Shown here: positions 4,525-54,928 of the stretch, one piece after another
How the letters are laid out: the number at the start of each line of letters is the position of its first letter
Numbering within the stretch: the first letter of the stretch is position 1
Assembly: GCA_018812625.1 (NCBI GenBank)
Contig: JAHJDH010000031.1
Location: 1-57,581, forward strand
DNA length: 57,581 nucleotides
DNA from: Candidatus Micrarchaeota archaeon
GTDB lineage: Archaea > Micrarchaeota > Micrarchaeia > Anstonellales > Bilamarchaeaceae
Reading direction: 5' to 3'
The notes under the pieces: model-generated
Seen by the model: only the letters and a program-made list of their open reading frames with translations
The model's database searches: none
What the model was told of the DNA's origin: nothing
Position numbers and translations under genes: made by a program

Positions 4525-4926
4525 ATGTTTCAACAAAGAATTCGGTCAGCTTCAAAGAGAGGCGTTCAAGAAAAAAGGGATCCAAAGTTAGCTGCTGCTA
4601 TAAAAAAGTATCAACTAATAGCAGAGTTAAGAGGAACCATTGAAGGTGGAGATGTTTCTGCGGTTTGTAAAACCCTATTCCAAAATCCAGATCAGATTAG
4701 ATATGTATTTGGAGCTTTAATTGATCCTTCGAAAGATTTATCTCGCCATGCAGAGTTTGTTATTGCAAGGCTAGCTCAAAGTAATGACCCAGTAGTGCAA
4801 ACTCATCTTCAGATAGGCCTATCTAATTTTCTAAGCTCTCCATGGATTAGTGATAACGCATCTAATCTATCTGCTATTGAACTGAGAATTCGTATGAGTA
4901 TGATCCATTCAAGGCTTTCAGGCTAA
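4525..4926 (+). CDS. Orphan alpha-helical protein with basic N-terminal leader
   Basis: MFQQRIRSASKRGVQEKR leader then HEAT-like helices. Confidence 0.6.
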   Translation: MFQQRIRSASKRGVQEKRDPKLAAAIKKYQLIAELRGTIEGGDVSAVCKTLFQNPDQIRYVFGALIDPSKDLSRHAEFVIARLAQSNDPVVQTHLQIGLSNFLSSPWISDNASNLSAIELRIRMSMIHSRLSG

Positions 4927-5561
4927 AAATTCCTTGTTTGTTTTATTTCTATCAAGCCATGTTTTTCAGCTTCTCTTAGAGTTTGGGGCAAATCATCATG
5001 ATAATCATACACTCCGGAAAACATGCCTTTTTTGATTTTTGAAACTACTAACTTTAACAATCGATCCCAGCACCCTTCTTTTATTTCAAAATAATAATGT
5101 TTTGCCTTACCATTCTTTTCCATAGTAAAGCCGGATGATAAAGTAGTTACAATGATGTTCTGAGCCTTTGCAACTCTTTTTGTTCTCTGAATCCAGTCCT
5201 TGTGAAAATCCCTGCTTAACTGTACTAGTCCAAGGCCTTTCGCCTCATGCAAAACAGCTTCAATCGTTAGATCAGAATTAACTGTATCTGCTAATTTCCC
5301 TTCTTCCAGCTTTGTTGCAATAAAAAGAATGAATCTAAATGATGCTTCTGGCGTTATTTCTGCCTTGTAAAATCCCGGATCATGCCCCTCCTTGCGATAA
5401 AATCCGTGAGTTAATATGCTTTCAATAATTTTTGTCGCAATTCCAAAAAGGCGTATTTTACCATCTTCCTTCAGTACTTTTGCCCTTTGAAATGCTTTTT
5501 TTACATTCGTTCCAACAGCAATTTCTGATCTAGGACTGGGCCTGTCAAATGCTTTACGCAT
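4923..5561 (-). CDS. Orphan protein with two copies of a ~70-aa repeat
   Basis: Repeats end in LHEAKGLGLVQL and LREAEKHGLIEI. TATA about 25 nt upstream. Confidence 0.7.
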   Translation of the reverse strand: MRKAFDRPSPRSEIAVGTNVKKAFQRAKVLKEDGKIRLFGIATKIIESILTHGFYRKEGHDPGFYKAEITPEASFRFILFIATKLEEGKLADTVNSDLTIEAVLHEAKGLGLVQLSRDFHKDWIQRTKRVAKAQNIIVTTLSSGFTMEKNGKAKHYYFEIKEGCWDRLLKLVVSKIKKGMFSGVYDYHDDLPQTLREAEKHGLIEIKQTRNF

Positions 5562-5613
5562 GTTGTTATTTCTGTGAAGATGGTATTAAATACTTTTTCG
5601 GAAAAATGACTAT

Positions 5614-6378
5614 ATGGAATTTGTTTGCCCTAAATGCAAGGTTCCTCTTGGAGGCAAAGATAAATTCGTCTGCTCCAAGTGCGCAAGCGTTTATCCAGTT
5701 AAAGAAAAAATACCTGATTTTCTAGACTCTAAATCCTGGACTACTGCTATACATACTTTCCTTTTTGATACCCTCTCACTGATTTATGAGAACAATCTAT
5801 ATGAGTATAATTTCAAACTTTGGTGTGGCATGAGCGTTCCAAAGCGAGATGTTCTTCGCAAAATGATTCGAAAAGAGATTTCTCAAGACGCCCGGAATAT
5901 AATTGACATAGCAGGAGGCTCTGGAACACTGAGTCGCCATCTTGCCTCTGATGCTTCAGATGTTTATTGCATTGATTATTCTATGGGAATGCTCAGATCT
6001 GGTCAGAAGCATTCTAAGGCTCCAAATATGCATTTTATTCGTTCTATGGCAGAAACTCTTCCTTTTGCAAAACAAAGCTTTGATGGGGCTATTATTGGCT
6101 ATAGTTTCTACTTATTCAAAAAGCCAGAGATTGTTCTGCGCGAAGTATCCAGAGTGCTGAAGCCTGGAGCTCCACTAGCTATAGCCACGTTTTTCAAAGG
6201 CGATGGGGGGTATTTGAAGTATCGGCTTGGGATTTGGCATGCAAAAAGAAAGGGAATCAACGTTTATACGTTGGCTCAAACCCGGGCAATGGTATCAAAA
6301 GCAGGCTTTGACGAAATTGATACTGATATATATGGTTCGTTTGTTCTTCTTAGTGCAAGGAAGAAAAAAGACAAATGA
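5614..6378 (+). CDS. Class I SAM-dependent methyltransferase with N-terminal Trm112-like Zn ribbon
   Basis: CPKC...CSKC...YPV..KIPDF, then IIDIAGGSG, CIDYS, RVLKPGA. Confidence 0.85.
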   Translation: MEFVCPKCKVPLGGKDKFVCSKCASVYPVKEKIPDFLDSKSWTTAIHTFLFDTLSLIYENNLYEYNFKLWCGMSVPKRDVLRKMIRKEISQDARNIIDIAGGSGTLSRHLASDASDVYCIDYSMGMLRSGQKHSKAPNMHFIRSMAETLPFAKQSFDGAIIGYSFYLFKKPEIVLREVSRVLKPGAPLAIATFFKGDGGYLKYRLGIWHAKRKGINVYTLAQTRAMVSKAGFDEIDTDIYGSFVLLSARKKKDK

Positions 6379-6407
6379 TTTTTATATAGAAGCAGCGATG
6401 TCTAGTT

Positions 6408-6719
6408 ATGGCAGGAGATATTGAGTGGAAATTTGTACTTCTTGAAGGATATTGCATGTTCAATGCTTATAGCACAGAGAAAAAAGTCAGGGTAAATGTT
6501 TTTCCTGATGGAGATTTGACTAAAAAACCAGTGTCAAAACTCGAAGATAATGACATGTATCTTCCAAAGAGCAAACTCAAGAGGCCAAAGAATTGTCCTA
6601 GAGAGCCATCTGCTCTTTGCCTTAGCCAGGGCTGCAGATTCTTTGGTTATTCCAGCGGAAAGTTCAATGACATGACTCATGATATGTTCAAGCATTATCG
6701 GAAGCAGGAAAAGAGATAA
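6408..6719 (+). CDS. Small hypothetical protein, Cys cluster
   Basis: 103-aa ORF with CPREPSALCLSQGC. Confidence 0.6.
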   Translation: MAGDIEWKFVLLEGYCMFNAYSTEKKVRVNVFPDGDLTKKPVSKLEDNDMYLPKSKLKRPKNCPREPSALCLSQGCRFFGYSSGKFNDMTHDMFKHYRKQEKR

Positions 6720-6866
6720 TTTCATTCTTTTAAGTGAACCATATTCAAAAACTGTAATCTATACCTACTTCTTCCAGTTTTTGCATAAAATCCAGAGACA
6801 ATTTATTAATACTAGTTATGTTGTAGTATATTGTATAATATGATTTAATAACTTGGAGATGGAAAT

Positions 6867-7379
6867 ATGACCAAACAAAAAAAGAATGATGCTCAAGGAA
6901 AGGGGAATGCCAGAGTTTATTTATCTGTTAGGGAAAGATGGAAGGCCTGGACTCCGCTTGTTGAAAAGTCTCCTTCTCAAGATACTAAAGTAGATGAACT
7001 ACTTCAGAGAATGCGCGTGGATTATGATGCTCACAGCGCTTATGAAGACATTGTTTCTATGGGAGAAGCTGCAGTGCCAAGGTTGATCGAACTTCTCACA
7101 ACTGGCAGTTTTGAAACTCCTGATGAGGCTGGTGTAGTTCTAGGAGGCATTGGAAAAGTAGCAGTACCAAAATTAATTGAAGCTCTTGATACTGATAATC
7201 CAAAGGCAAGGGAAGATCTCATCGATACCCTAGCGTATATCACCTCGGATTTTACAGCTGATGATTGGAAAGAAACGTGCAAGGATCTTGATGCTAATTT
7301 GGTTTTGAGAGCTGCAAATGCAGTTTCAGAAGCAGGTCATCGCGAATTTGCTTCTCGGATCAAGAGTGGAATTGAATGA
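6867..7379 (+). CDS. HEAT/PBS-lyase-like repeat protein with basic N-terminal leader
   Basis: GEAAVPRLIELL and GKVAVPKLIEAL repeats; MTKQKKNDAQGKG leader. Confidence 0.8.
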   Translation: MTKQKKNDAQGKGNARVYLSVRERWKAWTPLVEKSPSQDTKVDELLQRMRVDYDAHSAYEDIVSMGEAAVPRLIELLTTGSFETPDEAGVVLGGIGKVAVPKLIEALDTDNPKAREDLIDTLAYITSDFTADDWKETCKDLDANLVLRAANAVSEAGHREFASRIKSGIE

Positions 7380-7453
7380 TACTATAAACCTGATAATGAA
7401 CATACGCACATTTCAATTCCATTAGAAGATCAGAAGAAAAAATAATTTTTTAT

Positions 7454-8122
7454 CTATTCTATTTTTTGAAGTACTGCAGTTCCAGCATCATGTGAAATTT
7501 TAAATTTGCCAACACGGTCTATCCTCTCAAAACCCATTTTTTCAAGTTTTGGAAATAAGTGGGAATTTACTCCGAATACAAGGCCATCTGGAGGAACTAC
7601 CCTATGTATGTGGCTCAATAGCAGCGACTCATATTCAATTTCCATTTGTTTGCTCTTATTATGCGCCAAAACAATCTCGTCAATTGCTCCAAGAAAGACA
7701 CTCGCACTATTATCTGGCATTTTTGCCACATACTGAAGCATATCATTATTTTCAAGTACTATTCTTGGATCTTCAAAACTCATATTTTTATATGAAAGAT
7801 AAAGATCAACTCCCAAATATAATCTAACGCCACATGCCAGTGCAAAATCTACCATTGGCCTGGGATCACCTGCTCCAAGGTCCAATAAAACTGCATTTTC
7901 CAGTAAGTTCTGAAAAAATCCTGGGAGTTTTTTTATTCCCAAAAAAGTATTTCCATATACGAACATATGTGCCAATGCAGAACATGGGGGAAATGGAAAT
8001 CCAATCCTTTTCCAGGGTTCAGACGTGCAGCCAGTCAGTCTGTCTATTTGTACTTTTTCTAATTCTGGCACTTTCCTGAATCTAACCTTTGAGCTTCCGT
8101 TAACTCTTTTTTGCTTGTGCAT
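7454..8122 (-). CDS. Class I methyltransferase-like protein, paralog A
   Basis: LLDLGAG motif I, YLGVD motif II, HRVVPPDG. Confidence 0.7.
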   Translation of the reverse strand: MHKQKRVNGSSKVRFRKVPELEKVQIDRLTGCTSEPWKRIGFPFPPCSALAHMFVYGNTFLGIKKLPGFFQNLLENAVLLDLGAGDPRPMVDFALACGVRLYLGVDLYLSYKNMSFEDPRIVLENNDMLQYVAKMPDNSASVFLGAIDEIVLAHNKSKQMEIEYESLLLSHIHRVVPPDGLVFGVNSHLFPKLEKMGFERIDRVGKFKISHDAGTAVLQKIE

Positions 8123-8126: not shown

Positions 8127-8783
8127 TTACCATTCTTTTTTGAATAAACCTTCCGTTATACGAGTGAAACCAAAATCAGGCAGCATGTCAAGTGCAGGTG
8201 CATTGAGTCCAAATGCCACTCCATGCGATGGAACAACTCTCATAAGCTCCTGTGCAATGTCGCTCATGTATATATCAGTTGCAAGTCTGACATTGGATGC
8301 CAGGATCGATCGATCTACTGAATTCATACAAACATTTGCAGATTGATCTGGCTGGAAAAATAGGAATTGGAGCATATCCTCGTTGATTGCCCGGAGTAGG
8401 ATATCCGGAAATTTGGGATTAATCATTTTTTCCATAACCTCTTCTGCATTTGTATAATCGACATATCTATCTACTGCAACATATTCGCTTACTCCAAGTG
8501 TTGCAGCAAGATGTGCCATCGAAAGGAAAGAATTGCTGTTGCCTGCTCCAATGTCAATAAGTCTTCTGCCTTTGAGAGCCTCCCCAAGAACTGGAGATGG
8601 ATTTTCCAGGCTGAAAAACATGCTAGTATCATAGACCACATCTGGAGCAAGTTCGTATGAAGATGGTTTAAAAGATCCCCAATAATCGCTCAGATGTTTT
8701 GCTGTCTCTACAATAGCTCTTGCTTTACCTTCAGGCACTTCTCTTCTTTGCATGGCTGGCTTTGGACCTTTGAATGTTACCAT
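8127..8783 (-). CDS. Class I methyltransferase-like protein, paralog B
   Basis: LIDIGAG, YVAVD, MRVVPSHG; colinear with paralog A. Confidence 0.7.
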   Translation of the reverse strand: MVTFKGPKPAMQRREVPEGKARAIVETAKHLSDYWGSFKPSSYELAPDVVYDTSMFFSLENPSPVLGEALKGRRLIDIGAGNSNSFLSMAHLAATLGVSEYVAVDRYVDYTNAEEVMEKMINPKFPDILLRAINEDMLQFLFFQPDQSANVCMNSVDRSILASNVRLATDIYMSDIAQELMRVVPSHGVAFGLNAPALDMLPDFGFTRITEGLFKKEW

Positions 8784-9036: not shown

Positions 9037-9567
9037 ATGAAACAAAAGACTCAAGAATCAAGATCAAAAAACTCAAACAAAAAACCAAAAGGAAGTTTTG
9101 GAACAGAACAATCGCCAAAAGGCATGCATGAAGGGAAAATTGATCCACTTGTTACATCTGAAGGGAGGCTTCTTCACAATCCAGTTGGAATCGATAATAT
9201 GCATATTTTATGCCAAGACTTCCTGGGAGTAGGATCAGCATCAAAAGGCAAAGTGGCCGAATCGACAGATGTTTTGGAAGATGATAGTCCTAGACATATG
9301 AGATTCGTTGAATGTGTTCTTGAAGGTGGTGTCACTGAAAATCGTGATCTTGCAGTTATGCCTGGAGGTACAAGAAAAGCTTTTCTTTCACATTACAAAG
9401 TGGAATTGACTGAGGGTACTACAAAGGAAGATTTTGCTAGATTTCTAAATGAACTAGGTATTGATGATATGCCTAAGCTTTCTGATCTCACATATGTCAT
9501 GTTACTTCGGGCTCAGGAGGCTGGTCTTGTTGAGCTTAGATATGAGCATGATATACTCCCAATCTAA
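9037..9567 (+). CDS. Chimeric orphan protein
   Basis: Basic leader, a 28-aa segment shared with the C-terminus of 26058..27980, and a domain shared with 4923..5561. Confidence 0.7.
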   Translation: MKQKTQESRSKNSNKKPKGSFGTEQSPKGMHEGKIDPLVTSEGRLLHNPVGIDNMHILCQDFLGVGSASKGKVAESTDVLEDDSPRHMRFVECVLEGGVTENRDLAVMPGGTRKAFLSHYKVELTEGTTKEDFARFLNELGIDDMPKLSDLTYVMLLRAQEAGLVELRYEHDILPI

Positions 9568-9744: not shown

Positions 9745-9787
9745 ATTTGTGGAACTGTTTTAAATAGTGTCAATTAATATAAATACG

Positions 9788-10051
9788 ATGAAGCTTAGAG
9801 AAGAGCAAAAAAACATGCGGATTCCAAAGAAACCACTCAGAACAATTCTTGCAGCAGCAGTTCTTGTCTCGAATATAATGGGATGTGCGGCTTCTCCAGG
9901 AAGAACTGAGACAATCTGCTCAAGTCAGGGGATGATCATGTATGATCGCAGGATGGATGAGGATCCACAGATGCTTACTCCTGAAGATAGAGAGTTTTTG
10001 CTCAGGAACAACCATGTTCATATGAGATGCGTTACTGTTCCGGCAAGATGA
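9788..10051 (+). CDS. Small lipoprotein-like orphan
   Basis: Basic leader plus ILAAAVLVSNIMGC lipobox-like signal; TTTTAAAT about 25 nt upstream. Confidence 0.6.
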   Translation: MKLREEQKNMRIPKKPLRTILAAAVLVSNIMGCAASPGRTETICSSQGMIMYDRRMDEDPQMLTPEDREFLLRNNHVHMRCVTVPAR

Positions 10052-16641: not shown

Positions 16642-16821
16642 AGATGTGTGTTGTCTGCTAATGGTTTTATATGTTTGCGAGAGTTCATTGATCAAGCAAA
16701 GAACATGACTTTCCTTGAAATAAAGCACATATAACTAATTATGTAAAAGTGTCCAGAATGCATTTTACATCTTTTTACTAAAATACACACACATATATAC
16801 AAGGTCTGTCCTAATATATAA

Positions 16822-17337
16822 ATGAAAAAATTCCATCCAACTTATGCAGAAACATCGGGTTATCGCGGATCAACCCAAAATAAGCACCGATTGAGCGGCA
16901 GTGAAGCAGCCACGCTCCGAAATTCAGTGCTTGTAAGGGACCATCACAAATGCTCATATTGCAATTTCCATGGAGAGAAATGGCAGGAAGTAGGATATGT
17001 TGACGGTGATTCAAGTAATAATAAATTAAACAACTTGACCACAGTCTGCCCTATGTGCAATCTCATACTCAATTCTGGTTTAGGATGTCAGATCGAAAGT
17101 ATTGTAGAGCTTTATAAGAGCTCAGAGTACAATCAGAACAAGATAGTCCAGATAACGAGGAAAATGAGAAGTAATGGGAAGAGCGATATTAACATAATCC
17201 GAGTTCTGGGTCTGAAAGACAAAGTACCATTCAAGAGAAACAAGAAGTACCTAAGCGTTCTTTTTGCATTTGTAACTTCGTGGAAAGGCTCATCTGGCGA
17301 TGTGGAAGAAGCTTTGCGCTATGGATACATTGGTTAG
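16822..17337 (+). CDS. HNH-fold Zn-binding protein, degenerate active site (DotN/IcmJ-like)
   Basis: VLVRDHHKCSYC...QEVGYVDGDSSNNKLNNLTTVCPMCN. Confidence 0.75.
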   Translation: MKKFHPTYAETSGYRGSTQNKHRLSGSEAATLRNSVLVRDHHKCSYCNFHGEKWQEVGYVDGDSSNNKLNNLTTVCPMCNLILNSGLGCQIESIVELYKSSEYNQNKIVQITRKMRSNGKSDINIIRVLGLKDKVPFKRNKKYLSVLFAFVTSWKGSSGDVEEALRYGYIG

Positions 17338-17380
17338 TCAAAACTACTAGTTTTATTTATGTTTTTTGTCATATCAAAAC

Positions 17381-17530
17381 ATGGAAGTCTGCCCGAAATA
17401 TGGAAAACCAGTGGAAGCTAAAGATCACATGCCACTAGCTGGCTCCAGGCCAATTAGCCAGATAGAATGCAGCTGCGGGTATTACGGGCTGCCGGTTCAG
17501 CTTGAACCAGAGGATTCAAAAGGAGATTGA
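17381..17530 (+). CDS. Small degenerate Zn-ribbon peptide, possibly a pseudogene; paralog of 11360..11740
   Basis: MEVCPKYGKP...IECSCGYYGLPVQLE; second Cys replaced by Tyr. Confidence 0.5.
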   Translation: MEVCPKYGKPVEAKDHMPLAGSRPISQIECSCGYYGLPVQLEPEDSKGD

Positions 17531-17814
17531 GAAATAGTAAAAGAATATTGGAAATGGAGATTTCATAGTAATAGCTCTTTATTCAGAGGACATCTCAGTA
17601 GTAAGTAGATCAATCAAAGAATTTGACTGTCCTTAGAATATCATTCAGAATGTGGATCTCCACAGTATCCTTCAACCAAATATTAAATAGAACAATTGCA
17701 TTATTTTATGTAATAGAAAACAGGAAAAGATTGTGGTAATATATTGATTTGTGGTATAATTAAATAATGTAAGCGTTATAAATGATTAAGGAATAGGAAT
17801 AATTAGGTGTTCTG

Positions 17815-17988
17815 ATGGCAAAACCAATTCGTGCGACTCCGACCCTTAACGGCGAGGAAGCAATACAATTTGTAAAAAATATTCTTAGGGAGGAAAAAAG
17901 GCCCTCTAAGGCTAGAATTACAACTATAACTACTGCCAGGAGCAGATACTCTCGTTTTAGCAAAATAATGAAATCAGTGCAAGGATAA
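17815..17988 (+). CDS. Putative antitoxin, 57 aa
   Basis: MAKPIRATPTLNGEEAIQFVK...; AGGTG RBS; TAATG overlap with the GNAT gene; not in the ORF track. Confidence 0.65.
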   Translation: MAKPIRATPTLNGEEAIQFVKNILREEKRPSKARITTITTARSRYSRFSKIMKSVQG

Positions 17989-18542
17989 TGGATACTAATA
18001 AGCTCATTTTTGAGAGGTTGGACAAAAAACATTTCGAATTACTCAAATCATTTCAATGCTGTCAAAAGGATCTCGGGGATTTTTTAGTTGATGATGCTAT
18101 TCCAAACCAAAAGAAAGGAATTTCAGTCACATATATGTTTTTTTCCAAAGAAAAAAAGTTTGTTGGTTATGTAAGCATACTCACAGATAATCTAAACCTT
18201 AATGCTGATTTGAAAGGATACTTCAAACAGAAAGAGGACATTCACTACAAATCATTGCCTGCTCTGAAGATAGGTAGGCTAGCTGTCGATGACAGATACG
18301 CACGACAGGGAGTAGGTACCGAGATGGTCTATTTCTCTATATATCTAGCAGAGCAGATATATGGGAATTATTGTGGCTGTAGATTCATTACTCTGGATGC
18401 AAAAAGAGACTCAAAAAATGATACTACACATTTCTACAAGAAACTTGGTTTCAAGGTCTACAAGGAAAGGCAAAAAGGATCTGTTCCTATGTACTTGGAC
18501 CTATGGTTAAGGTCGGATATCAAAAAATCCAAAAAGAACTAA
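17988..18542 (+). CDS. GNAT acetyltransferase, AtaT/TacT-like toxin
   Basis: SFQC...LGDFL..DA, PALKIGRLAVD...RQGVG, GCRFITLDA, FYKKLGF. Confidence 0.85.
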   Translation: MDTNKLIFERLDKKHFELLKSFQCCQKDLGDFLVDDAIPNQKKGISVTYMFFSKEKKFVGYVSILTDNLNLNADLKGYFKQKEDIHYKSLPALKIGRLAVDDRYARQGVGTEMVYFSIYLAEQIYGNYCGCRFITLDAKRDSKNDTTHFYKKLGFKVYKERQKGSVPMYLDLWLRSDIKKSKKN

Positions 18543-18573
18543 GAAATTCTAAAAGAATATTGGAAATGATGAA

Positions 18574-19068: not shown

Positions 19069-19095
19069 TTTTAGAATTTCTAAAAAGGTGTTGAA

Positions 19096-22380: not shown

Positions 22381-22383
22381 TCA

Positions 22384-41241: not shown

Positions 41242-41715
41242 TTATGGGGTGATCTTCCCAAAATTCGATTGTCTAAACCTGATAATCATGCCCTTTTCTT
41301 TAGGGATTGTTTCTTTTCTGCCAAGTTTCCATGATAAGTTTTCGTAGATATCATGCATGCAAATTCGATCGTCATCTGTTCTGATAAGGTCTTTAAGTTC
41401 AGGGTGTTTTGAAAGGATTTCTGCTATATTGTCCATGAAAAGTGCAGTAATAACAAAATCATAGATTTGGTTTGCCTGCTCATCGTTCAAAGCAGAAAGA
41501 GCATTTGAAAATGCAGTATAATTTAGATTATAACTCTTGCGAAGCCCAATCCATAATCTTCGAAGAGCAGGGGTAACATTTACTTTATCTGATTTTTTTG
41601 GAGCAGGAAGAGCAGTTTTTTTCACTGGTTTTTCGACTGTTTTTTTTGCAGCTATTACTGCTGGTTTTGATGTTTTCTTCTTTGTTTTTTTTGTAGTAGT
41701 TTTTTTCTTGGCCAA
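41242..41715 (-). CDS. Hypothetical protein with Lys-rich N-terminus
   Basis: Probable TTG start with GGTG RBS; AKKKTTTKKTKKK. Confidence 0.65.
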   Translation of the reverse strand: MAKKKTTTKKTKKKTSKPAVIAAKKTVEKPVKKTALPAPKKSDKVNVTPALRRLWIGLRKSYNLNYTAFSNALSALNDEQANQIYDFVITALFMDNIAEILSKHPELKDLIRTDDDRICMHDIYENLSWKLGRKETIPKEKGMIIRFRQSNFGKITP

Positions 41716-41825
41716 GATAACACCAATTGAAAACATACAATTGAATTATTTAAATACTTGCAAGTAAAGAGGTCATAGAATCCCATTATAGATAACTTTA
41801 TTAATATATCCTGAGAAAGAAAAGT

Positions 41826-42059
41826 ATGAAACAACAAATAGGGCAGAGGCAAACTTGCAAAGGACGAACAACAAAAAGCAGATTCAAAGATAGAGATATT
41901 GCAAGTGTAATGCAAGAAGAGATTAATAGGGGAATTGTAAGAGACGATCATGAATGGGTTTCCCCAGCTACTGACGATGGAGCAAAAAACAGTAGAGAAA
42001 TTTCAGCTTCTGATGTTAATTTTAGGATTTTTGATACAAAGCTTAATAAAGAAGAATAG
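41826..42059 (+). CDS. Small orphan with basic leader
   Basis: MKQQIGQRQTCKGRTTKSR; TATA about 25 nt upstream. Confidence 0.5.
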   Translation: MKQQIGQRQTCKGRTTKSRFKDRDIASVMQEEINRGIVRDDHEWVSPATDDGAKNSREISASDVNFRIFDTKLNKEE

Positions 42060-42619: not shown

Positions 42620-43768
42620 TTATTTTTTTGGATTCTCATGATCTTTTAATTTTTTTAGGGCCTTTAACCTTACAGATTGCGGAATTAAAATAGAGAATGA
42701 AATAAACTGCAAAACTTCAATTTCGCCCATTAATGCTAATTTTTCGATTATTTTATCCATATGAGTAACTAGAGCCTGAAAAGCTTTGGAATTTAGTTCA
42801 GTAACTGTATAGTCTGGAGAATGGGAAATACTCTCAACAATATCATCATAGTCCTTGAGATATTCAACTACAGCACCTATGACTACCTCTTCATCTTGAG
42901 AGGACAAGTTCTCAAATAAAAGTTCTGGCTCAATTGATGCAATTCCATCATTTGCTCTTTTGGATTTTGGAGCTTCAGCTGCAATTATTGGGACATGCTC
43001 AAGCTCACCCATTCTGATTAATGCTTCTTTGGCAAGTGCGTGCGTCTCAGTAGACAGAAGCTCAAACTCAGAAGCAAAATGCAATTCAGGAATTAAGTTC
43101 ATCTCTTCAAGAACGCCGATTACTTCCTCTTGATTGTGCTCAATAACATCTACTGCAGCAGAAGTTAGTTCTGTTACAGTTAGTTCAGGAACAACTGATA
43201 CTTCTAGCACTAGGCCATGATAATTGCTTATGAACTCAACTGCCCCAATTACTTGATCTTCTGCCAATTCTGAGTTTAAGTGTCCCACAAGTTCATTGAG
43301 CTCCTCGCCAGTTACAGGTGCCGAGCGAAGAAGGGTTTGCTCTGGAATTGAATCTGCAAGATCTGGATTTATATCTCGCAGAGCTTCAAGAGCATGATTA
43401 TTGAATTCAGATGATAAAAAACTGCACTGGGCAATAAATTTTAGTTCGTGGGCTGCCCCATCCTCTGCAATTTCACTGATCAGAGTTTCTTTGTTTTCAT
43501 TGGCAGTCTCAAGCATTACCTTGACAAAATATCTATCAGGAACCTCAGTACATTCAAGGGCGCCTTGGATTACATCATTTGGCCGGTTTAAAAATTCGCG
43601 AAGTCCTTTAAGTTGCTCTTCCTGCTTTTCACTTTGAAGAAGAGATATTAATTGTAAAATCTGCTCACCAGAATATGGATTCCCAACTACTAGTGGAGAA
43701 TTATTTTCCTCGCGCTGTTTAACTGGTATCTTTGCATGAATCAAACTACGCGTCTGGTTTTTTTTCAT
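42620..43768 (-). CDS. Acidic alpha-helical protein with three ~95-aa repeats and a basic leader
   Basis: L...L.S...E.Q..G..E(F/Y)...L.F....L.......A...L repeated three times. Confidence 0.75.
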   Translation of the reverse strand: MKKNQTRSLIHAKIPVKQREENNSPLVVGNPYSGEQILQLISLLQSEKQEEQLKGLREFLNRPNDVIQGALECTEVPDRYFVKVMLETANENKETLISEIAEDGAAHELKFIAQCSFLSSEFNNHALEALRDINPDLADSIPEQTLLRSAPVTGEELNELVGHLNSELAEDQVIGAVEFISNYHGLVLEVSVVPELTVTELTSAAVDVIEHNQEEVIGVLEEMNLIPELHFASEFELLSTETHALAKEALIRMGELEHVPIIAAEAPKSKRANDGIASIEPELLFENLSSQDEEVVIGAVVEYLKDYDDIVESISHSPDYTVTELNSKAFQALVTHMDKIIEKLALMGEIEVLQFISFSILIPQSVRLKALKKLKDHENPKK

Positions 43769-43808: not shown

Positions 43809-44189
43809 CTAATCTCTTTTCGTGATACTAACAGACAGCCCAACTCCTGCTGGAAATGGATGAATTAGGGTGATCTTTATCGTCGCATCAGTCATTGGAT
43901 CCCTAAATGTTTTTGATTCATCATAGTAAAGGTTTTCAGTTGCAATAATTTCTCCACCCCTAAGTATATCCACAACAGAACACAGCCCGTTTTTTTCTTT
44001 AAATGAAAATCTAAAACCTCCGATTGAAAAGGCTGAGCCTCCAAGAAGAACACCAAAAATTGCTTTCTCAGACGGAGTAGACCCCTCATCAGGCACCAAC
44101 TTTAAATGAGATGCAGAAAATGCTTTGACACCATCATCTTTTAGTGATGAGTCTGGCCTTCTAAGTTTTTTCGAATTCATGATTATCAC
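43809..44189 (-). CDS. Orphan beta-rich protein with basic leader
   Basis: MNSKKLRRPDSS leader. Confidence 0.6.
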   Translation of the reverse strand: MIIMNSKKLRRPDSSLKDDGVKAFSASHLKLVPDEGSTPSEKAIFGVLLGGSAFSIGGFRFSFKEKNGLCSVVDILRGGEIIATENLYYDESKTFRDPMTDATIKITLIHPFPAGVGLSVSITKRD

Positions 44190-44947
44190 TCTGAGACTGG
44201 AATTGAAATATTGAACTTTGTGCCTTTTCCATACATGGTTTCAACATCAACTAATCCGCCAAGTAATGAAACTGAATGAAGGACAACAAAAAGTCCAAGT
44301 CCTGTTCCTGTTTCTTTTGTTGTAACTCCAACATCAAATGCCAAATCAAGATCATCTCTTGACATTCCACAGCCATTATCCATAACAGATATCTCGGCAA
44401 ACTGAGCCATATCGATAGTAACATTTGAAGATAAAACGCTTATCCTGCCTTCTGGCCCAAGCGCCTCATGAGCATTCTTAAGGATATTGAATAATGCCCG
44501 ATAAAGCACAAGCGGATTACCACGAACATTTCCTTCTGCTTGAAGATTCTCAGAAATCTTGCAGGTTCCAGCAGCATTAGTTATTGATAAAATTGCGCGA
44601 TGTATTTCATCTTCTGGATCAAATGGCATATCAATTAGGACATTATGTTGGATTTCAACCATTAGGCCGGCAATTTTGGAAACTTGCTCAAGGGCTGTTT
44701 TTGAACTTTTATGAAAAGCAACTATTTTTGGATGGATTCTTGCTGCAGCTGTTGCTCCTATATTGGAAAAGAAATCATTCATTGATATTACCGGAGATAG
44801 AAGCCCATTGATGTCATGTCTTAGGGATCTTAGATACATGGATTTCATTACAGCTAACGGTTCATTCAAGGGAGTTCCTACAAATGTTTTTTTAGCTCGA
44901 AGATCAAAATGCTTCCTTGAAATTCTAGTAATAGTCATATAATCCAC
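44186..44947 (-). CDS. Sensor-less histidine kinase (HisKA plus HATPase_c)
   Basis: LRHDINGLL H box, NILKNA, DNGCGM, AF...TTK, GTGLGL, GTKF. Confidence 0.88.
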   Translation of the reverse strand: MDYMTITRISRKHFDLRAKKTFVGTPLNEPLAVMKSMYLRSLRHDINGLLSPVISMNDFFSNIGATAAARIHPKIVAFHKSSKTALEQVSKIAGLMVEIQHNVLIDMPFDPEDEIHRAILSITNAAGTCKISENLQAEGNVRGNPLVLYRALFNILKNAHEALGPEGRISVLSSNVTIDMAQFAEISVMDNGCGMSRDDLDLAFDVGVTTKETGTGLGLFVVLHSVSLLGGLVDVETMYGKGTKFNISIPVSE

Positions 44948-45045: not shown

Positions 45046-45588
45046 TTATTTGATCAAAAGGAAGTCTTTAAATTCAATTTTCTTAACGTTGAGCCATGCT
45101 TCACATTCTGCAAAAAAAGCATTGTCAGTTTCTCTTAACTTGTCTATTAAAGATCTGCCTTTTTCAGTGAGTTGATATGAGCATTTGACTAGATGGGATT
45201 TGTGAATAGATCGTTCAGGACCTCCGCCAGGAATTTGTGTTGGCTTGATCAGATCAGCTGCCCTCATAGTCGATAAAGAGTAAGATACAGTGGTTCTGGT
45301 TAGATCATACAATTTTGCAATAGCATAACCATGATTGACCTGGGTATCAACAGCACATAAACATGCGACTTGCGTTGTCGTAACAGAAATGGCTTCTTCA
45401 CCAACTCCAAGTGTTAATTTTTTTGTTCGGCGCCTTATTTTGCCAGATTGTGAATACAATTCTGTAAATAATGGATTAGTAAGGCCATGATTTCCATGTC
45501 TTGGCTCTACAATCAAATCTAAACGAATACTAAATCTAGTATGGGGTTGTTTTGCATTAGTATCTTTTTTTGATTTAGACTGGTGCAT
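45046..45588 (-). CDS. Winged-HTH protein with basic leader
   Basis: HGYAIAK...TRTTVSYSL..M....LI...YQLTEKGR (PadR/MarR-like). Confidence 0.7.
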   Translation of the reverse strand: MHQSKSKKDTNAKQPHTRFSIRLDLIVEPRHGNHGLTNPLFTELYSQSGKIRRRTKKLTLGVGEEAISVTTTQVACLCAVDTQVNHGYAIAKLYDLTRTTVSYSLSTMRAADLIKPTQIPGGGPERSIHKSHLVKCSYQLTEKGRSLIDKLRETDNAFFAECEAWLNVKKIEFKDFLLIK

Positions 45589-45748: not shown

Positions 45749-45807
45749 AAATATTCGTTTCTATGCACACGCATTCCATTATCTTGATGATGTGATTATC
45801 AAAATTT

Positions 45808-47342
<1,535 letters not shown>

Positions 47343-47597: not shown

Positions 47598-48584
47598 ATG
47601 AATAATAACATGAAAAAGGTTAACCTTCACAATAAGCCAGGAGATTGGGATGGCATAAGAGATAGAGTCTCCAGGCTTAATAAGGTTGCCTCAAGAAGAA
47701 TTGCAAGAAGCCTGAGATCTTATGCTCCATTTGAAGAGCGATTTTGCATTGCTGCAGTTGGAAGCGATGGAAGACTTGAAAAGGGAGAAGTCTCTTCTCT
47801 CGAAGTTGTTTTTTATCATAAGGATATGACTTGTTCTGTTGGAACAGAACTTACAAGACAAGCAAAGGGACTTTGGAGGGAAATTTACTGTCCGCTCCTA
47901 GGGGATAGTGGATATGAAGCCAAAGCAATTGAATCTGACACAATGAGCATTGCATTTGGGAATATGCATGCAGTTTATCCTTCAAGAGTATTGGATTCTG
48001 TACTGATTCATGGAAACCCAGAGGTTCTTGATAAGGCAAAGACAAGAATGGTTGCTGAATGGAATGGAAAGTTTGGTCAAAAGGTCAGAAAAATCCTCAA
48101 AGAACGCAAAAGACAGTCAAAACGGGTAATGGAAACCGGAACGCAAGAATGGAAATCAACTAGCATAGCACATTATAATGCAAATTACGGAAAGGCATTT
48201 TACAATGATCTTGACATTGAAGGTGAATTAGTTCAGGTCAGATCAGCAAAACCAGGGCCACTTAGATTTGTTCAGGGAACAATCGAATTTGCAGTTGTTG
48301 GGATTGCAAGAAAACTGAAACGTGAAGATGCAGAGAAATTAGTAATTGAACTTCCAACTCCCACTATTGAAAAAATAGCTTATCTTGGAAACCTTGGAAT
48401 GCTCAGCCTAACAAACGAGCAGGTTGAGAAAGTTGTTGACTGTTATCTATCGTTCCTAAGATTATATCATGCAAGTGAATCTGGATATGTTGAAGCAGAA
48501 ACAGTAGTAAAATTCGATCCAAAAGAAGCCAGAGAAAGAATTGAAGCACTGTCCAGAATACTTGAAGGCAATATAGTTCGCTAA
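47598..48584 (+). CDS. GlnD/GlnE-like nucleotidyltransferase-fold protein, degenerate DxD
   Basis: IAAVGSDGRLE...SSLEVVF; helical C-terminal part (KPGPLRFVQ, YLSFLRLYH). Confidence 0.65.
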   Translation: MNNNMKKVNLHNKPGDWDGIRDRVSRLNKVASRRIARSLRSYAPFEERFCIAAVGSDGRLEKGEVSSLEVVFYHKDMTCSVGTELTRQAKGLWREIYCPLLGDSGYEAKAIESDTMSIAFGNMHAVYPSRVLDSVLIHGNPEVLDKAKTRMVAEWNGKFGQKVRKILKERKRQSKRVMETGTQEWKSTSIAHYNANYGKAFYNDLDIEGELVQVRSAKPGPLRFVQGTIEFAVVGIARKLKREDAEKLVIELPTPTIEKIAYLGNLGMLSLTNEQVEKVVDCYLSFLRLYHASESGYVEAETVVKFDPKEARERIEALSRILEGNIVR

Positions 48585-48789: not shown

Positions 48790-49260
48790 ATGAACAAATC
48801 CCAAATAACAACAGTTGGTAAAAGGTCAGTCCCAAAACCACCCTTAAGAGGAGTAGTTAAGGATAGCAAGCCTGAGCCAGACACTATTTTTAATTCTGCA
48901 AAAGGTTCTGTCCCTCCGGAAAGACCATTATTCTCATCAGCAAACCCTGGAGAGCGCATGGTTGAAGTTGTAGAGGAAATGTTTGAACTTGAGAAGGGAA
49001 TTGAGGATCTTGTAGCCGAAGGTATCCAAAGGCCAGTAGTTGCGAAAAAGAAATCACCCCAAGGAATGAGAGGTTCGGTTCCGCCAGAGCAATCGGTCTT
49101 TAATGCAAACGATCCAAGGCAGGCTCTTATTGATAGTATTGAACCAACAGAGCTCTCTTCAGATATTGAAGATCTTGTAGCCGAAGGAACAAGCACATCA
49201 ATAGAAGATTGGAAAAGGATCCCAAAGGCACCAAAACTTCCAATGGAATTTCGATCCTGA
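48790..49260 (+). CDS. Disordered orphan with two internal repeats
   Basis: GSVPPE...IEDLVAEG twice; basic Pro-rich leader. Confidence 0.7.
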   Translation: MNKSQITTVGKRSVPKPPLRGVVKDSKPEPDTIFNSAKGSVPPERPLFSSANPGERMVEVVEEMFELEKGIEDLVAEGIQRPVVAKKKSPQGMRGSVPPEQSVFNANDPRQALIDSIEPTELSSDIEDLVAEGTSTSIEDWKRIPKAPKLPMEFRS

Positions 49261-49308: not shown

Positions 49309-49938
49309 ATGGACGATGACAAGATTGTCCTTGATCGCAAAAGCTTCGAGGCACTTGCTGTTGACACTAGAGTCAAGATACTCAAATCACTAAAAGAAAG
49401 AAGAAAAACGCTCACAGAGATCTCGAAAGAACAAAATATGTCTGTTTCTGGAATCAAAGAACATTTGGAGACTCTTGAGAAAGTAGGACTAATTGAAAAG
49501 ATTGATGATGGGCACAAATGGAAATATTACGAGCTTACAAAAAAAGGAAAGGAAATTGTTAGCCCAAGAGAAGTCAAAGTCTTTATTATGCTCTCAATTT
49601 CACTGATTGCACTTATTGCTTCGGCATTTTTCATGTTTCCTCCGATGTCTCAAATGGAAGCAACTCAAACAGGAGGAGCGCGCGTTACTTCTTCTGAAGC
49701 TCCAATGGCTGCTCCTATGGCAGAAGAAAATGCCGCATATGATGTATTATATGATGACGAAGAATACGGAGATGCATCTGCAAAAAGTCTTGGTGGAGAA
49801 TCTCAAGTGCCAGAAGAAATTGAATTGGAGGATTTGGAAGAATCCAAAGATAACAGATTAGTAATTTTAATTGCAGTAATCAGCCTTGCTACGATACTCT
49901 CATGCCTTGGGATCCTCTTTCGAAACAGGATGCACTAA
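49309..49938 (+). CDS. ArsR-family wHTH regulator with two TM segments
   Basis: ALAVDTRVKILK...TLTEIS...KEHL..LEKVGLI...YYELTKKG plus TMs. Confidence 0.85.
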   Translation: MDDDKIVLDRKSFEALAVDTRVKILKSLKERRKTLTEISKEQNMSVSGIKEHLETLEKVGLIEKIDDGHKWKYYELTKKGKEIVSPREVKVFIMLSISLIALIASAFFMFPPMSQMEATQTGGARVTSSEAPMAAPMAEENAAYDVLYDDEEYGDASAKSLGGESQVPEEIELEDLEESKDNRLVILIAVISLATILSCLGILFRNRMH

Positions 49939-50248: not shown

Positions 50249-51133
50249 ATGTTCGGTGTAAAGGTCATCTCGCCAGAAATTCTTGGTATAAAGCAGTGGA
50301 TAAATTCCAAACCACTTAAGATTAAAGATCTAAAAGACAAGGTAGTACTCATTGAATTCTGGTCATACAACTGCATGAATTGCAGAAGAACTATTCCTTA
50401 CATGAAAAAATGGCATTCTAAATATTCCAAAAAGGGACTGGTTATCATAGGAGTTCATTCCCCGGAGTTTGAATTTGAAAAAGATCCTAAGAATGTCAAA
50501 AATGCAGTAAAGGATCTTGGAATAAAATACCCAGTTGCAGTAGATAGCAAACTAGAAACATGGAATAACTTTGAAAACAGGGTTTATCCTGCAAAATTTC
50601 TGATTGAAGAGGGATATGTAACCTATGTTCTCTTTGGTGAGGGGGATTATGAGAAAACAGAAAGGATAATCCAAGAAGCTCTTGGTGTAAAGGGTAAAGT
50701 AGAAAAGGAACAATATCTCAGTTATATGTTTGATCAAAGCCCGATAACTTATACGGGATTTGCAAAAAATACTGGACTTGGCTCTGGTCTTACAGTAAAG
50801 GAAAAAACAAGTTACTATGTTGATCCTGGAGAACATATACTAAATACGGTTTATCCTGATGGGCAGTGGGAACAGAAAAGCGACTGTCTTGAATTAAAGA
50901 AAGGGCCTGGAAAATTATCATATAAGTTTATTGCAAATGAGGTAAACCTTATTGTCGAGCCTCTTGGAAAATCAGTCACTGCAGATGTTTATGTTGATTA
51001 TAAAAAGAAAAAATCAATTACTATAGGCTCTGCTGGGATCTGCTCGTTTTTCAAAGACAAACATTTCAAAGAAAGAGAAATTTCAATTATTTTCAAGGGC
51101 AAGATAAAGGTTTTTGCATTTACCTTTGGCTAA
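50249..51133 (+). CDS. DipZ-like thioredoxin-fold protein
   Basis: WINSKPL, FWSYNCMNC, IGVHSPEFEFEK, AFTFG C-terminus. Confidence 0.9.
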   Translation: MFGVKVISPEILGIKQWINSKPLKIKDLKDKVVLIEFWSYNCMNCRRTIPYMKKWHSKYSKKGLVIIGVHSPEFEFEKDPKNVKNAVKDLGIKYPVAVDSKLETWNNFENRVYPAKFLIEEGYVTYVLFGEGDYEKTERIIQEALGVKGKVEKEQYLSYMFDQSPITYTGFAKNTGLGSGLTVKEKTSYYVDPGEHILNTVYPDGQWEQKSDCLELKKGPGKLSYKFIANEVNLIVEPLGKSVTADVYVDYKKKKSITIGSAGICSFFKDKHFKEREISIIFKGKIKVFAFTFG

Positions 51134-52610: not shown

Positions 52611-52688
52611 ACCAACAAATGCTATAATGAAATATATAAATTTTCAGTTGGGCGTGGGATTTAAAAAGTTGAAGGCGAATTCCCACAT

Positions 52689-53990
52689 ATGGCGATAGAG
52701 GCTGAGGGGATAGAGTTCCTCATCATAGGCATCACAATTGTAATGGGATTTTTGGCAAATCGAATATTTGACAAAACACAAGTGTCCCAGGTTATTTTAC
52801 TCATGCTATTTGGTTTTCTTTTAGGGCAAGTATTTGGACTGCTTGATGTTTCCTCTGAATCAGTCATTGTATCTATTTTGCCATTTATTGCATCTATTGC
52901 CCTTATTTTCCTTTTGTTTGATGGTGGTATTGAGTTTGATATTTTCAACCTTGCAAAAACCATTCCAAAAAGCATGCTATTTACGCTGCTTGTTTTTGCC
53001 CTTGGTATGATTTTCATAGGAGGCTTTACAGTTATCGCACTTGGATGGGAGATTCTGCATGGCCTTTTGCTTGGTGCAGTAGTTGGCGGTTCAAGCGGTG
53101 CAGTGGTTATTGCCCTTGTTGAGCGAAGCCATATCAAAAAAGAAACCAAATCCCTGCTTACTGTTGAATCAACATTGACAGATGCACTGGTAATTATCAC
53201 AGCAGTTGTCTTGATTGGTCTTATTACAGCAGGTACAGTACCTTCTGTTGGTTCACTTGTTGGATTATTTTTATCTTCATTTACAATTGCAATAACTCTT
53301 GGAATAATTGCCGCTTTCATTTGGATATTCTTGATGAACAGATTCGAAATGCATCTTTATTCGTACATGCTTATGCTTGCTCTTCTCTTTGGATTGTTTT
53401 CACTTACAGAAATGGTCCATGCAAGCGGAGGAATTGCTGTATTTGTCTTTGGTGTTATTCTTGGAAATGCAAAAAAACTTGGAAAGATAGCAAAAATTGA
53501 GTGGGTGAATCCAGTAAGCAGAACCTCGAGGCTTTTCCAGGAAGAAGTAACTTTCTTCGTTAGAACCTTCTTCTTTGTGTATGTGGGGCTTTTGCTCTCA
53601 TTAAACTATTTCAGCCCAATTGTTTTAGGAGTTTCAATTGCAATTGTCGCCCTTGTTGTCCTTGGAAGATTTTTAATCCAGAAATTAATCTTGCCTGATA
53701 TTCCACGCAAGGACCAGGGAATTGTAGTTACCATGATGCCAAGAGGACTTGCTGCTGCAGTTGTTGCAACTCTTCCTCTTACTGCAGGGATTATGATACC
53801 GCTCTTCCAGGAGTTTGTTTTCACAACAATACTGCTTACCAACATAGCAGCCACAGTTGGTGTATTTACATTTGGCAGAAAGGATGATAATGGGGAGAAG
53901 GAAGAGCCAAAAAAGGAAAATGGCAAAAAAGACAATGGCCAGGCTAAGAATAATAAAGAAAATCATAAGAAGAAAAAGGCCAGTGCATAA
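52689..53990 (+). CDS. Cation/H+ antiporter, CPA1 (NhaP-like)
   Basis: LFDGG, VESTLTD, FFVRTFFF, MPRGLAAAV; about 12 TM. Confidence 0.88.
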   Translation: MAIEAEGIEFLIIGITIVMGFLANRIFDKTQVSQVILLMLFGFLLGQVFGLLDVSSESVIVSILPFIASIALIFLLFDGGIEFDIFNLAKTIPKSMLFTLLVFALGMIFIGGFTVIALGWEILHGLLLGAVVGGSSGAVVIALVERSHIKKETKSLLTVESTLTDALVIITAVVLIGLITAGTVPSVGSLVGLFLSSFTIAITLGIIAAFIWIFLMNRFEMHLYSYMLMLALLFGLFSLTEMVHASGGIAVFVFGVILGNAKKLGKIAKIEWVNPVSRTSRLFQEEVTFFVRTFFFVYVGLLLSLNYFSPIVLGVSIAIVALVVLGRFLIQKLILPDIPRKDQGIVVTMMPRGLAAAVVATLPLTAGIMIPLFQEFVFTTILLTNIAATVGVFTFGRKDDNGEKEEPKKENGKKDNGQAKNNKENHKKKKASA

Positions 53991-54100
53991 TTTTTTTACC
54001 CCATAATTTTATTTTTCATATCAAGAGGCTAATTATTGTTTTTATCCCAACAAAGAGCATATTTAAATACATGATTGTTCATATATTATAACCGATAGTT

Positions 54101-54928
54101 ATGTATGATTATGAATCACAGCCAGAATGGGCACGAAAGCTTCAAACAGAATATAGATTTACAGGATCTAATTTGGAAGCTGGAGAGCAGATGATCCGGG
54201 AACGCATGGAAGAAGCCGTTCAAAAGCCCATGGAAGAGGCTACAGAAGAAATTCGTCATATATTGAATATGGCAGTACTCAGTGATCCTGCAATTATTAT
54301 TGCTATGGAAATTGCAGCTCAAAAGAACATTTACGAAGTTGATGCTGCTCTTGGTGATATTTATCCATCTGAGAAAGTTCTGGCAAAGGGTATTGAACTT
54401 CTGGGACAACATGGAATGTTGTTTGCCATAATACATCATGCTCATGAGCACATAGTTGAAAAAGAACCTGGAAAAGAACCAAGGTCGATGAGAAAGATCA
54501 AAAGATTCCCATCAGGATTTGACAATAATGATAGAGGAATAGTTGCAGAACAGGCAGAAAAATCAATTCTTGAAGCAGTTGACACCCTCTCAGGCGGAAA
54601 ACCAATGCCCGGTGGCATTACCTTAGTAGATTCGCCACAGATTAGTGAGTTTCTTTTTGTGAGTAAGAGCTTCCTAAGTGACAGGTTAAAAATCGAGATA
54701 ATTGAAGTGCTTGCCAAAAATGAATGTTTTGACCCTATTGCCGGTATTGAAGCAAATGTTTGGGAAAGTAAAACAGCAAGAGAAGTAGCAAGAAAAACGC
54801 TAATGGCACTACAAGTCCCAACTGACACATTAGATAGCATGCAGGCATTTAGAAGACTAAAGGTTGTAGATGAAAAAACTCTGACAAGACCCAAAGGACC
54901 TTTGAAAAAACCAAAACTAGTTAACTAA
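54101..54928 (+). CDS. Orphan helical protein with basic Pro-rich C-terminal tail
   Basis: Ends ...FRRLKVVDEKTLTRPKGPLKKPKLVN. Confidence 0.7.
   Translation: MYDYESQPEWARKLQTEYRFTGSNLEAGEQMIRERMEEAVQKPMEEATEEIRHILNMAVLSDPAIIIAMEIAAQKNIYEVDAALGDIYPSEKVLAKGIELLGQHGMLFAIIHHAHEHIVEKEPGKEPRSMRKIKRFPSGFDNNDRGIVAEQAEKSILEAVDTLSGGKPMPGGITLVDSPQISEFLFVSKSFLSDRLKIEIIEVLAKNECFDPIAGIEANVWESKTAREVARKTLMALQVPTDTLDSMQAFRRLKVVDEKTLTRPKGPLKKPKLVN

Follow-up and report, generated by a model that had tools for sequence, protein, structure and literature searches.

The window analyzed here is a stretch of 57,581 nucleotides corresponding to contig C13 of a Micrarchaeota assembly (G000; 1.27 Mb in 43 contigs, ~39% GC, ~85% estimated completeness), and its subject is a set of genes whose predicted proteins begin with a basic N-terminal leader of ~15–40 residues, rich in K, R, P, Q and S. 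For related members of its genus and order, genome sizes run from 0.8 to 1.6 Mb. An initial annotation, made from the window alone, had proposed that such leaders are translocation signals by which a DPANN archaeon delivers bacteria-like proteins to a host. The nearest public locus belongs to an uncultured Candidatus Micrarchaeota archaeon, which bears out the DPANN assignment. Housekeeping genes recognized via Pfam include those for glutamate dehydrogenase, deoxyhypusine synthase, RsmB, DinB, a class V fructose-bisphosphatase (FBPase), ribonucleotide reductase, GluRS and ABCE1; no tRNA genes were found in the window, and the contig is tied to the archaeon by one rRNA gene:

45807–47342, minus strand: archaeal 16S rRNA gene (Rfam RF01959, 1363.7 bits)

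Genes were predicted with a crude, home-made caller (hexamer log-odds, longest open reading frame [ORF]), giving 1220 genes genome-wide and 72 in the window. A leader was scored where residues 2–26 had a net charge (K+R minus D+E) of at least +4 and at least 10 residues that were K, R, Q, P or S; this one fixed criterion was used throughout, and was set after the examples in the initial annotation had been seen. Genes with a tblastn match (E ≤1e-5) in the whole genome G032, from another family of the same order, are referred to as conserved. Leaders occurred in 17 of the 72 window genes, compared with 10.9% of genes in the remaining genome (binomial P = 0.0016), and in 0/16 conserved versus 17/56 non-conserved window genes (P = 0.016), in line with the original observation that housekeeping enzymes here lack them. 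The initial observation was borne out in part: all 15 N-termini quoted in the initial annotation were located where it had placed them (MNSKKLRRP is the start at 44180, minus strand), and 12 score as leaders, while those at 8783, 44180 and 47598 reach a net charge of +3 only. Two further proteins named as carriers, a histidine kinase (44186–44947) and a winged helix-turn-helix protein (49309–49938, net charge 0), have no real leader, and no window gene could be matched to the beta-barrel-like carrier. The description of the carriers as orphans largely held: 22 of 24 window candidates lacked NCBIfam or PHROGs matches and most lacked Pfam matches, but two of the 17 leader genes encode Pfam domains (19096–19434, DUF1801; 50249–51133, thioredoxin-like). 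The candidates are listed below, with reference to G002, a ~90%-identical relative that is collinear with window positions 5–45023 except for several islands.

4525–4926, plus strand: orphan, ~133 residues from the ATG at 4525; leader net +5, with 13 K/R/Q/P/S residues; no Pfam, NCBIfam or PHROGs match; start and upstream region kept in G002
4923–5561, minus strand: orphan, 212 residues; leader net +5; TATA-like box at −30; ortholog in G002, with a nonsynonymous to synonymous divergence ratio (dN/dS) of 0.23 in the body
6867–7379, plus strand: HEAT-like protein, 170 residues; leader net +6; HEAT_2 match (E = 1.1e-5) below the cut-off; missing from the collinear G002 region (alignment gap 6717–7463)
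7454–8122, minus strand: class I S-adenosylmethionine (SAM)-methyltransferase-like protein, 222 residues; leader net +6; forms a tandem pair with 8127–8783, as its second gene
8127–8783, minus strand: paralog of 7454–8122 (32% identity), 218 residues; weaker leader, net +3; TATA-like box at −31
9037–9567, plus strand: orphan, 176 residues, with the most extreme leader (16/25 residues K/R/Q/P/S; FoldIndex −0.62)
9767–10051, plus strand: small protein with a lipobox; its long basic n-region runs into a hydrophobic core (from residue 26) and then Cys; 97.7% identical in G002
20895–21236, minus strand: protein of ~108 residues from the ATG at 21221; basic leader, then a membrane-anchor segment; C-terminal paralog on contig C14
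21364–21642, minus strand: orphan, 92 residues, with a basic N-terminus; within a variable island
24037–24351, minus strand: orphan, 104 residues; leader net +6; TATA-like boxes at −30 and −38; nearest relative 76% identical
26058–27980, minus strand: exported protein, 640 residues; Sec signal peptide with a 16-residue n-region of net +8, hydrophobic region from residue 16; nearest relative 98.6% identical
41242–41736, minus strand: protein of 164 residues, the first ~50 being a Lys-rich extension; 18-nt in-frame indel relative to G002
41826–42059, plus strand: orphan, 77 residues; leader net +6
42620–43768, minus strand: ARM/HEAT-like protein, 382 residues; disordered basic leader over residues 1–29, then three all-alpha repeat domains
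43809–44189, minus strand: orphan, ~123 residues from the ATG at 44180; moderately basic N-terminus; looks operonic, because it overlaps the end of the kinase gene
44186–44947, minus strand: minimal histidine-kinase-like protein (DHp + HATPase_c); no true leader
45046–45588, minus strand: orphan, 180 residues; leader net +4; no Pfam, NCBIfam or PHROGs match
47598–48584, plus strand: candidate NTP_transf_2/DUF294-like (GlnD-like) nucleotidyltransferase, 328 residues (ESM Atlas 0.93); mildly basic N-terminus, net +3
48790–49260, plus strand: orphan, 156 residues; basic, Pro-rich leader, net +5; TATA-like box at −29

Across the genome, 142 of 1220 genes carry a leader by the same criterion, compared with 3.2% of internal 25-residue windows (413/12877), and leaders are concentrated among non-conserved genes (100/606 versus 42/614 conserved genes, P = 1.6e-7). 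This contrast persisted when the window was excluded (83/550 versus 42/598) and when genes were counted by paralog family (81/504 versus 38/491, P = 5e-5; the 100 leaders represent 87 families), and was robust to four thresholds and a first-ATG start rule (odds ratio [OR] 2.2–3.1). Split by length, it was significant only among proteins of at least 250 residues (50/273 versus 16/356, P = 3e-8). The excess is N-terminal only. Among non-conserved proteins, 16.9% of N-termini passed, compared with 3.9% for residues 26–50, 3.3% of internal windows and 9.2% of C-termini, and the corresponding values for conserved proteins were 6.4%, 4.5%, 2.9% and 8.7%. In basicity and proneness to disorder, the leaders exceed both the other N-termini of this genome and internal segments, so that one refuting condition of the initial annotation, leaders no different from random N-termini, does not apply. 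They are also more common where genes have the narrowest distribution (86 of 461 genes lacking a match in a sample of the congeneric genome G023, versus 14 of 145 that have one), and show mild clustering in the genome (25 pairs of neighbors versus 16.8 expected, P about 0.02).

The leader trait was scored in four genomes only (G000, G020, G023 and G032). With the same pipeline, no excess was found in the whole genome G032 (24/384 non-conserved versus 49/596 conserved) or in G023 (same genus, 720-kb sample; 15/355 versus 29/367). An excess did occur in G020 (same genus, 775-kb sample, 48% GC; 49/385 versus 30/408, P = 0.013), and here too it was confined to the N-terminus (13.3% versus 3.0% for residues 26–50). 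The leader excess thus belongs to some lineages of the genus. Because it is missing from G023 and G032 but found at 48% GC, neither a caller artefact nor plain AT-richness explains it. A longest-ORF hexamer caller of our own making, combined with a criterion tuned on the quoted examples, is a plausible source of error, yet the same pipeline gave no excess in two other genomes, the first-ATG rule strengthened the effect (OR 3.1), the starts are conserved behind promoter-like boxes, and the orphans are under purifying selection. It is accordingly very improbable, and largely refuted, that the excess stems from errors in gene calling or in the choice of starts, or from base composition. Nucleotide-level A-bias was likewise rejected as a cause: AAA/(AAA+AAG) was 0.71 in N-termini and 0.69 in interiors, and the AGA share of Arg codons was 0.50 and 0.53, respectively.

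Comparison with G002 indicates that the leaders are translated from the starts called. A G002 match with a conserved ATG was found for 15 of 16 genes compared (20895–21236 had no match), indels within leaders were multiples of three (3, 3+3, 18 and 2+1 nt), and conserved AT-rich boxes lay ~30 nt upstream of starts. A regular-expression search placed a TATA-like box at −24 to −40 for nine of the 15 quoted starts, and none of the 15 had a Shine-Dalgarno-like motif within 15 nt. Genome-wide, a TATA-like motif peaked at −31 to −28 from called starts, most strongly for leader genes. With the ATG kept, in-frame indels and TATA-like boxes, start codons downstream of the leaders, a pitfall raised in the initial annotation, can be set aside. 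For 10 leader genes, dN/dS relative to G002 was 0.16 in the body and 0.46 in the first 30 codons, compared with 0.10 in the body and 0.15 at the N-terminus for 10 comparison genes. The leader orphans are real genes, since a body dN/dS of 0.16 reflects purifying selection, and the sequence comparisons identify the leaders themselves as real, translated N-terminal stretches. Across these 20 genes, the first 30 codons had diverged less at synonymous sites than the body had, both for leader genes (0.21 versus 0.30) and for the others (0.12 versus 0.22), a hint that coding regions are constrained at the nucleotide level near their 5′ ends.

The leaders are a mixture and not one signal. We screened for Sec and lipobox signals by requiring, after a basic n-region, an uncharged hydrophobic core of at least 11 residues within the first 60. 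Such a core follows 20 of the 100 non-conserved leaders (Sec, lipobox or anchor signals), leaving 80 without one. In the window, three of the 17 are of this kind (26058–27980, 9767–10051 and 20895–21236). The n-regions of the leader-type Sec and lipobox signals span 15–28 residues; ordinary lipobox signals of the genome are mostly short. Compared with other N-termini, leaders are enriched in R (2.3×), P (2.1×), Q (1.7×), K (1.6×) and S (1.3×), with T at 1.0×, whereas D, E, Y and hydrophobic residues are underrepresented. Among N-termini without a hydrophobic core, 48.9% of non-conserved and 33.3% of conserved ones were disorder-prone (FoldIndex below 0), and in the AlphaFold2 (AF2) model of 42620–43768 the predicted local distance difference test (pLDDT) was low over the leader (<50 for residues 1–29; <35 for residues 1–30).

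No motif common to the leaders, for which the initial annotation had suggested a search, emerged; an all-against-all comparison of the first 45 residues returned only a few cross-family pairs. In the best of these, the first 34 residues of 9037–9567 resemble the N-terminus of a 501-residue HEAT protein on contig C4. Because a second similar segment (E = 0.001) suggests possible distant kinship of the whole proteins, this pair is not clean evidence of a shuffled leader module. A separate 27-residue segment, 78% identical, is found in 9037–9567 (residues 39–65) and at the C-terminal end of 26058–27980 (residues 613–639), and may be a recombination remnant. An amphipathic presequence was also considered and rejected, the maximal hydrophobic moment of leaders (0.471) being no different from that of their own shuffles (0.465; Wilcoxon P = 0.99, n = 80).

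Conservation across homologs indicates that composition, namely charge, is constrained in the leaders rather than sequence. In the ARM-like family of 42620–43768, all eight aligned members, down to 23% identity, have a K/R-rich stretch before the first conserved block, and the stretch itself is scarcely alignable among them. Among reciprocal-best non-conserved pairs between G000 and G020, a leader occurred in both members of nine pairs, in G000 only in 15, in G020 only in 13 and in neither in 134, so that leader state is associated across orthologs (OR 6.2, P = 7e-4; net-charge r = 0.52), with many of these alignments beginning only past the leader. Profiles of the two tandem methyltransferase-like proteins, run against 1.84 billion proteins, returned 673 relatives. 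Among the matches listed that start with M, 7/146 carry a leader, all within the 28 best-scoring, and remote matches align only from the Rossmann core and have neutral or acidic N-termini. In this pair, the basic N-terminus is a sub-family trait and not a recent tag. Word-indexed homology searches found only three near relatives for 42620–43768 and two for 7454–8122, and the orphans as a group are almost devoid of relatives. Elsewhere in the genome, a 13-member lineage-specific family has a conserved basic N-terminus (contigs C20:7515–12808, as five tandem copies, C4, C12, C16, C37 and C43), with weak Pfam matches below the cut-off (SNaCT1, Phage_int_SAM_4 and PP2C).

The same data bear on whether the leaders do anything. 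In a neutral scenario, young genes would have gained upstream starts or new 5′ ends, with polar-basic additions tolerated and hydrophobic or acidic ones purged, leaving a functionless by-product that may aid leaderless translation. This would account for leaders evolving about three times faster than their cargo, for gain and loss between G000 and G020 orthologs, and for the Lys-rich ~50 residues of 41242–41736 being absent from its G023 ortholog (the alignment runs from query residue 54 and subject residue 10). The association of leaders with TATA-proximal starts and the lowered synonymous divergence over the first 30 codons, in leader genes and other genes alike, point the same way. Nonetheless, we consider this scenario rather unlikely: leader dN/dS is well below 1, charge is retained across family members of 23–38% identity and at 48% GC in G020, the same process would be expected in G023 and G032, which show no excess, and there is no synonymous A-bias.

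The soluble cargo appears to consist mostly of intracellular-type regulatory domains. The methyltransferase-like proteins share a conserved glycine-rich motif (DLGAG/DIGAG; alignment A3), and 7454–8122 is placed by ESM Atlas (0.95) with methyltransferase clusters, its sole Pfam match being Spermine_synth, below the cut-off (E = 1.4e-3). Both an alignment and the AF2 model show three all-helical internal repeats of ~110 residues in 42620–43768. The leaderless kinase 44186–44947 matches HATPase_c (PF02518; 66.3 bits versus a cut-off of 26.4, E = 4e-18) and NCBIfam sensor kinases, and Pfam searches found neither a HisKA match nor a sensor domain in it. Proteins resembling receiver domains were recognized by eye elsewhere in the genome. 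Other leader carriers outside the window include a Ser/Thr kinase, the 501-residue HEAT protein and a GGDEF protein (contig C3:18210–19439, E = 1e-31). GGDEF matches were found in 28/41 related genomes and in 0/4 archaeal control genomes, and no EAL or PilZ protein was found in G000. A 2026 publication (PMC13725321) describes GGDEF proteins in archaeal metagenome-assembled genomes (MAGs), including those of DPANN.

We tentatively favor the interpretation, without regarding it as established, that the leaders are generic electrostatic arms working inside the archaeon on accessory proteins, where both the tether function and the site of action are inferred. Such arms would anchor the proteins to nucleic acids, to the anionic side of the membrane or to other proteins. 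Roughly one-fifth of the leaders belong to ordinary Sec, lipoprotein or membrane-anchor signals whose basic n-region is unusually long; the others, conserved in charge and variable in sequence, are fused to soluble, mostly regulatory-type domains (ARM/HEAT, methyltransferase-like and nucleotidyltransferase-like proteins, and elsewhere Ser/Thr kinase, GGDEF and receiver domains). Within the genus, one sub-lineage may have kept the arms on newly gained genes, many of them behind their own TATA-like promoter.

Several observations weigh against this interpretation. Every gene call rests on the crude caller. The contrast between non-conserved and conserved genes was not significant at 50–120 residues (19/112 versus 6/48) or 120–250 residues (31/219 versus 20/210), and most window examples fall below 250 residues. 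G020 and G023 were sampled to only ~60%. Leaders are more common where a TATA-like box lies at −40 to −19 (43/178 versus 54/399, P = 0.002), which could mean an mRNA-level cause tied to leaderless initiation. The proposed binding to nucleic acid or membrane is deduced from composition, and restriction to some lineages is equally expected of a lineage-specific targeting system.

DPANN archaea are mostly episymbionts; their interactions with partners are largely unknown, and most lineage-specific DPANN genes have no annotation. In a targeting scenario, the leaders would form a lineage-specific signal by which an unrecognized machine exports accessory proteins to the surface or the interior of a partner cell. 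They are N-terminal, disordered and constrained in composition, and are found on 87 families and on the most lineage-restricted genes; their patchy occurrence in the genus is as expected of a newly evolved system, and some cargo is bacterial in type. A search for translocation ATPases, as the initial annotation had proposed, gave no matches to VirB4 (PF03135) or VirD4 (PF02534), and none to TatC (PF00902); since the assembly is ~85% complete, absence of type IV secretion system (T4SS) machinery or of TatC is not proven. The genome does encode one SecY, two T2SSE-type ATPases and four DUF87/HerA-like ATPases (type III secretion system [T3SS] parts were not searched for). The four DUF87/HerA-like genes encode proteins of ~500–536 residues and lie on contigs C26, C23, C11 and C22. 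No motif, machine or cargo property links the leaders without a hydrophobic core to export. They also lack an amphipathic helix, about one-fifth of all leaders already use Sec, and the receiver domains, kinases and methyltransferase-like proteins among the cargo are typical of a cell's own regulation. On balance, delivery to a partner by such a signal is improbable, and charge-selected disordered tails are the more economical reading.

In the portion of the literature available to us, we found no description of basic N-terminal leaders in DPANN or Micrarchaeota. Sec and lipoprotein signals share the basic stretch, hydrophobic core and cleavage or lipobox-like site with ~20 of the 100 leaders, and extended charged n-regions are known, for example, from the extended signal peptide region of autotransporters. 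However, the n-regions here reach 15–28 residues and 80 of the 100 leaders have no core. T3SS and T4SS effector signals are similarly disordered terminal segments without a strict motif on diverse cargo. T3SS signals occupy the N-terminal ~20–30 residues and are polar, Ser/Thr/Pro-rich, not polybasic and of no strong net charge, whereas the leaders are enriched in R and K, not in T, and have a net charge of at least +4 by construction. T4SS signals are C-terminal, whereas the leader excess is N-terminal, C-termini passing at 9.2% in non-conserved and 8.7% in conserved proteins. Mitochondrial and plastid presequences and cationic cell-penetrating peptides are the nearest match in position and charge (N-terminal, 15–50 residues, poor in acidic residues, variable). 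Presequences form amphipathic helices, though, a signal that the leaders lack, and Pro is doubled in the leaders.

The basic disordered tails of nucleic-acid-binding proteins (ribosomal and histone/H1-like) are likewise K/R/P/S/A-rich and keep charge over sequence, and the extension of 41242–41736 resembles H1-like tails by eye. On the other hand, no nucleic-acid-binding domain or activity is known from any window orphan. The leaders on conserved genes are concentrated on contig C15 (9/42), which also holds SecY in what is presumably a ribosomal-protein region. A further parallel is importin-alpha, an ARM-repeat receptor that binds K/R-rich nuclear localization signal (NLS) peptides and has a basic N-terminal importin-beta-binding (IBB) segment of its own. 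In 42620–43768, a basic disordered N-terminus is similarly joined to ARM/HEAT-like repeats, and its best Foldseek matches (E = 7e-5) are importin-alpha and designed armadillo proteins bound to (KR)n peptides. The template modelling (TM) score is only 0.15–0.2, however, there is no Pfam ARM/HEAT match, and an archaeon has no nucleus. The ARM-like family occurs in 10/41 relatives; it is present in G000 and G020 and was not found in G023 or G032, and this co-distribution with the leader trait, across four genomes, is only a hint.

As a long shot, the leaders could be the sub-lineage's own polybasic address tag, read by charge, which would route dozens of accessory proteins, including bacterial-type signaling enzymes, to a contact site or partner cell. 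By analogy with importin-alpha and NLS peptides, its reader would perhaps be the co-distributed ARM/HEAT-like proteins, or the tag might be drawn electrophoretically across an energized membrane. If true, this would be a protein-delivery code undescribed in archaea. If, instead, the leaders are only generic disordered arms, they caution that basic N-termini on orphans alone are no evidence of effectors. The feature, a disordered N-terminal tail selected for charge and found on accessory proteins of some lineages, is more specific than expected. In one sub-lineage it reproducibly marks about one-sixth of the lineage-specific genes, whereas close relatives lack it, thereby offering a gene list and a comparative contrast, and the leader-bearing genes of this DPANN lineage are suited to work on localization, N-terminomics and binding.

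The suggestion of bacteria-like cargo holds in part, and is best represented in the window by one gene, which has no leader:

24392–25390, minus strand: bacterial-type protein of 332 residues with a putative C-type-lectin-like fold; no basic leader by the criterion

Outside Micrarchaeota, its relatives are bacterial only; 74 of 76 related loci are labeled as bacterial MAGs (Bacteroidota, Ignavibacteriota, Verrucomicrobiota and others), at 25–34% identity. The bacterial relatives carry a Sec signal peptide and a type IX secretion system (T9SS) sorting domain (Por_Secre_tail), and the archaeal copy has neither. Its structural model (predicted TM score [pTM] 0.81) returned no Foldseek match at E ≤0.001, and in a comparison with the C-type-lectin-like/FGE-sulfatase fold VIA-align gave Z scores of 8.4 for the Bd2740 C-terminal domain, 7.6 for TvpA, 7.5 for Mtd and 6.5 for invasin/intimin, values near 8 being common according to the tool's own note. 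This gene probably represents a bacterium-to-archaeon transfer of an extracellular binding domain that has lost both signals. Its kinship with T9SS-secreted proteins would suit a targeting function, yet the protein lacks a basic leader, and gene transfer would explain its bacterial type just as well as a bacterial host would.

The window also contains a variable island relative to G002 (16746–23415), with genes for a SIR2-like defense protein (19496–20569) and a SoFic-type Fic protein (22384–23313), where G002 has no sequence between the flanks. A viral or defense origin of the window orphans was rejected: 23 of 24 proteins had no PHROGs match (the exception being the kinase), and the only PADLOC matches, SIR2 and SoFic, are to genes without leaders. 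Also within the island, a small ORF and the GNAT acetyltransferase gene beside it (17815–18542) look like a toxin-antitoxin pair. Elsewhere in the genome, a four-gene block (contig C23:84427–90063) alternates leader proteins (403 and 656 residues) with membrane-anchored proteins (312 and 465 residues); none has a Pfam match, and the block is kept in G020 (contig C7). Near the start of the window, two cold-shock-domain genes (2600–2863 and 4261–4455, both on the plus strand) flank the glutamate dehydrogenase gene and are 90.6% identical over 64 residues.

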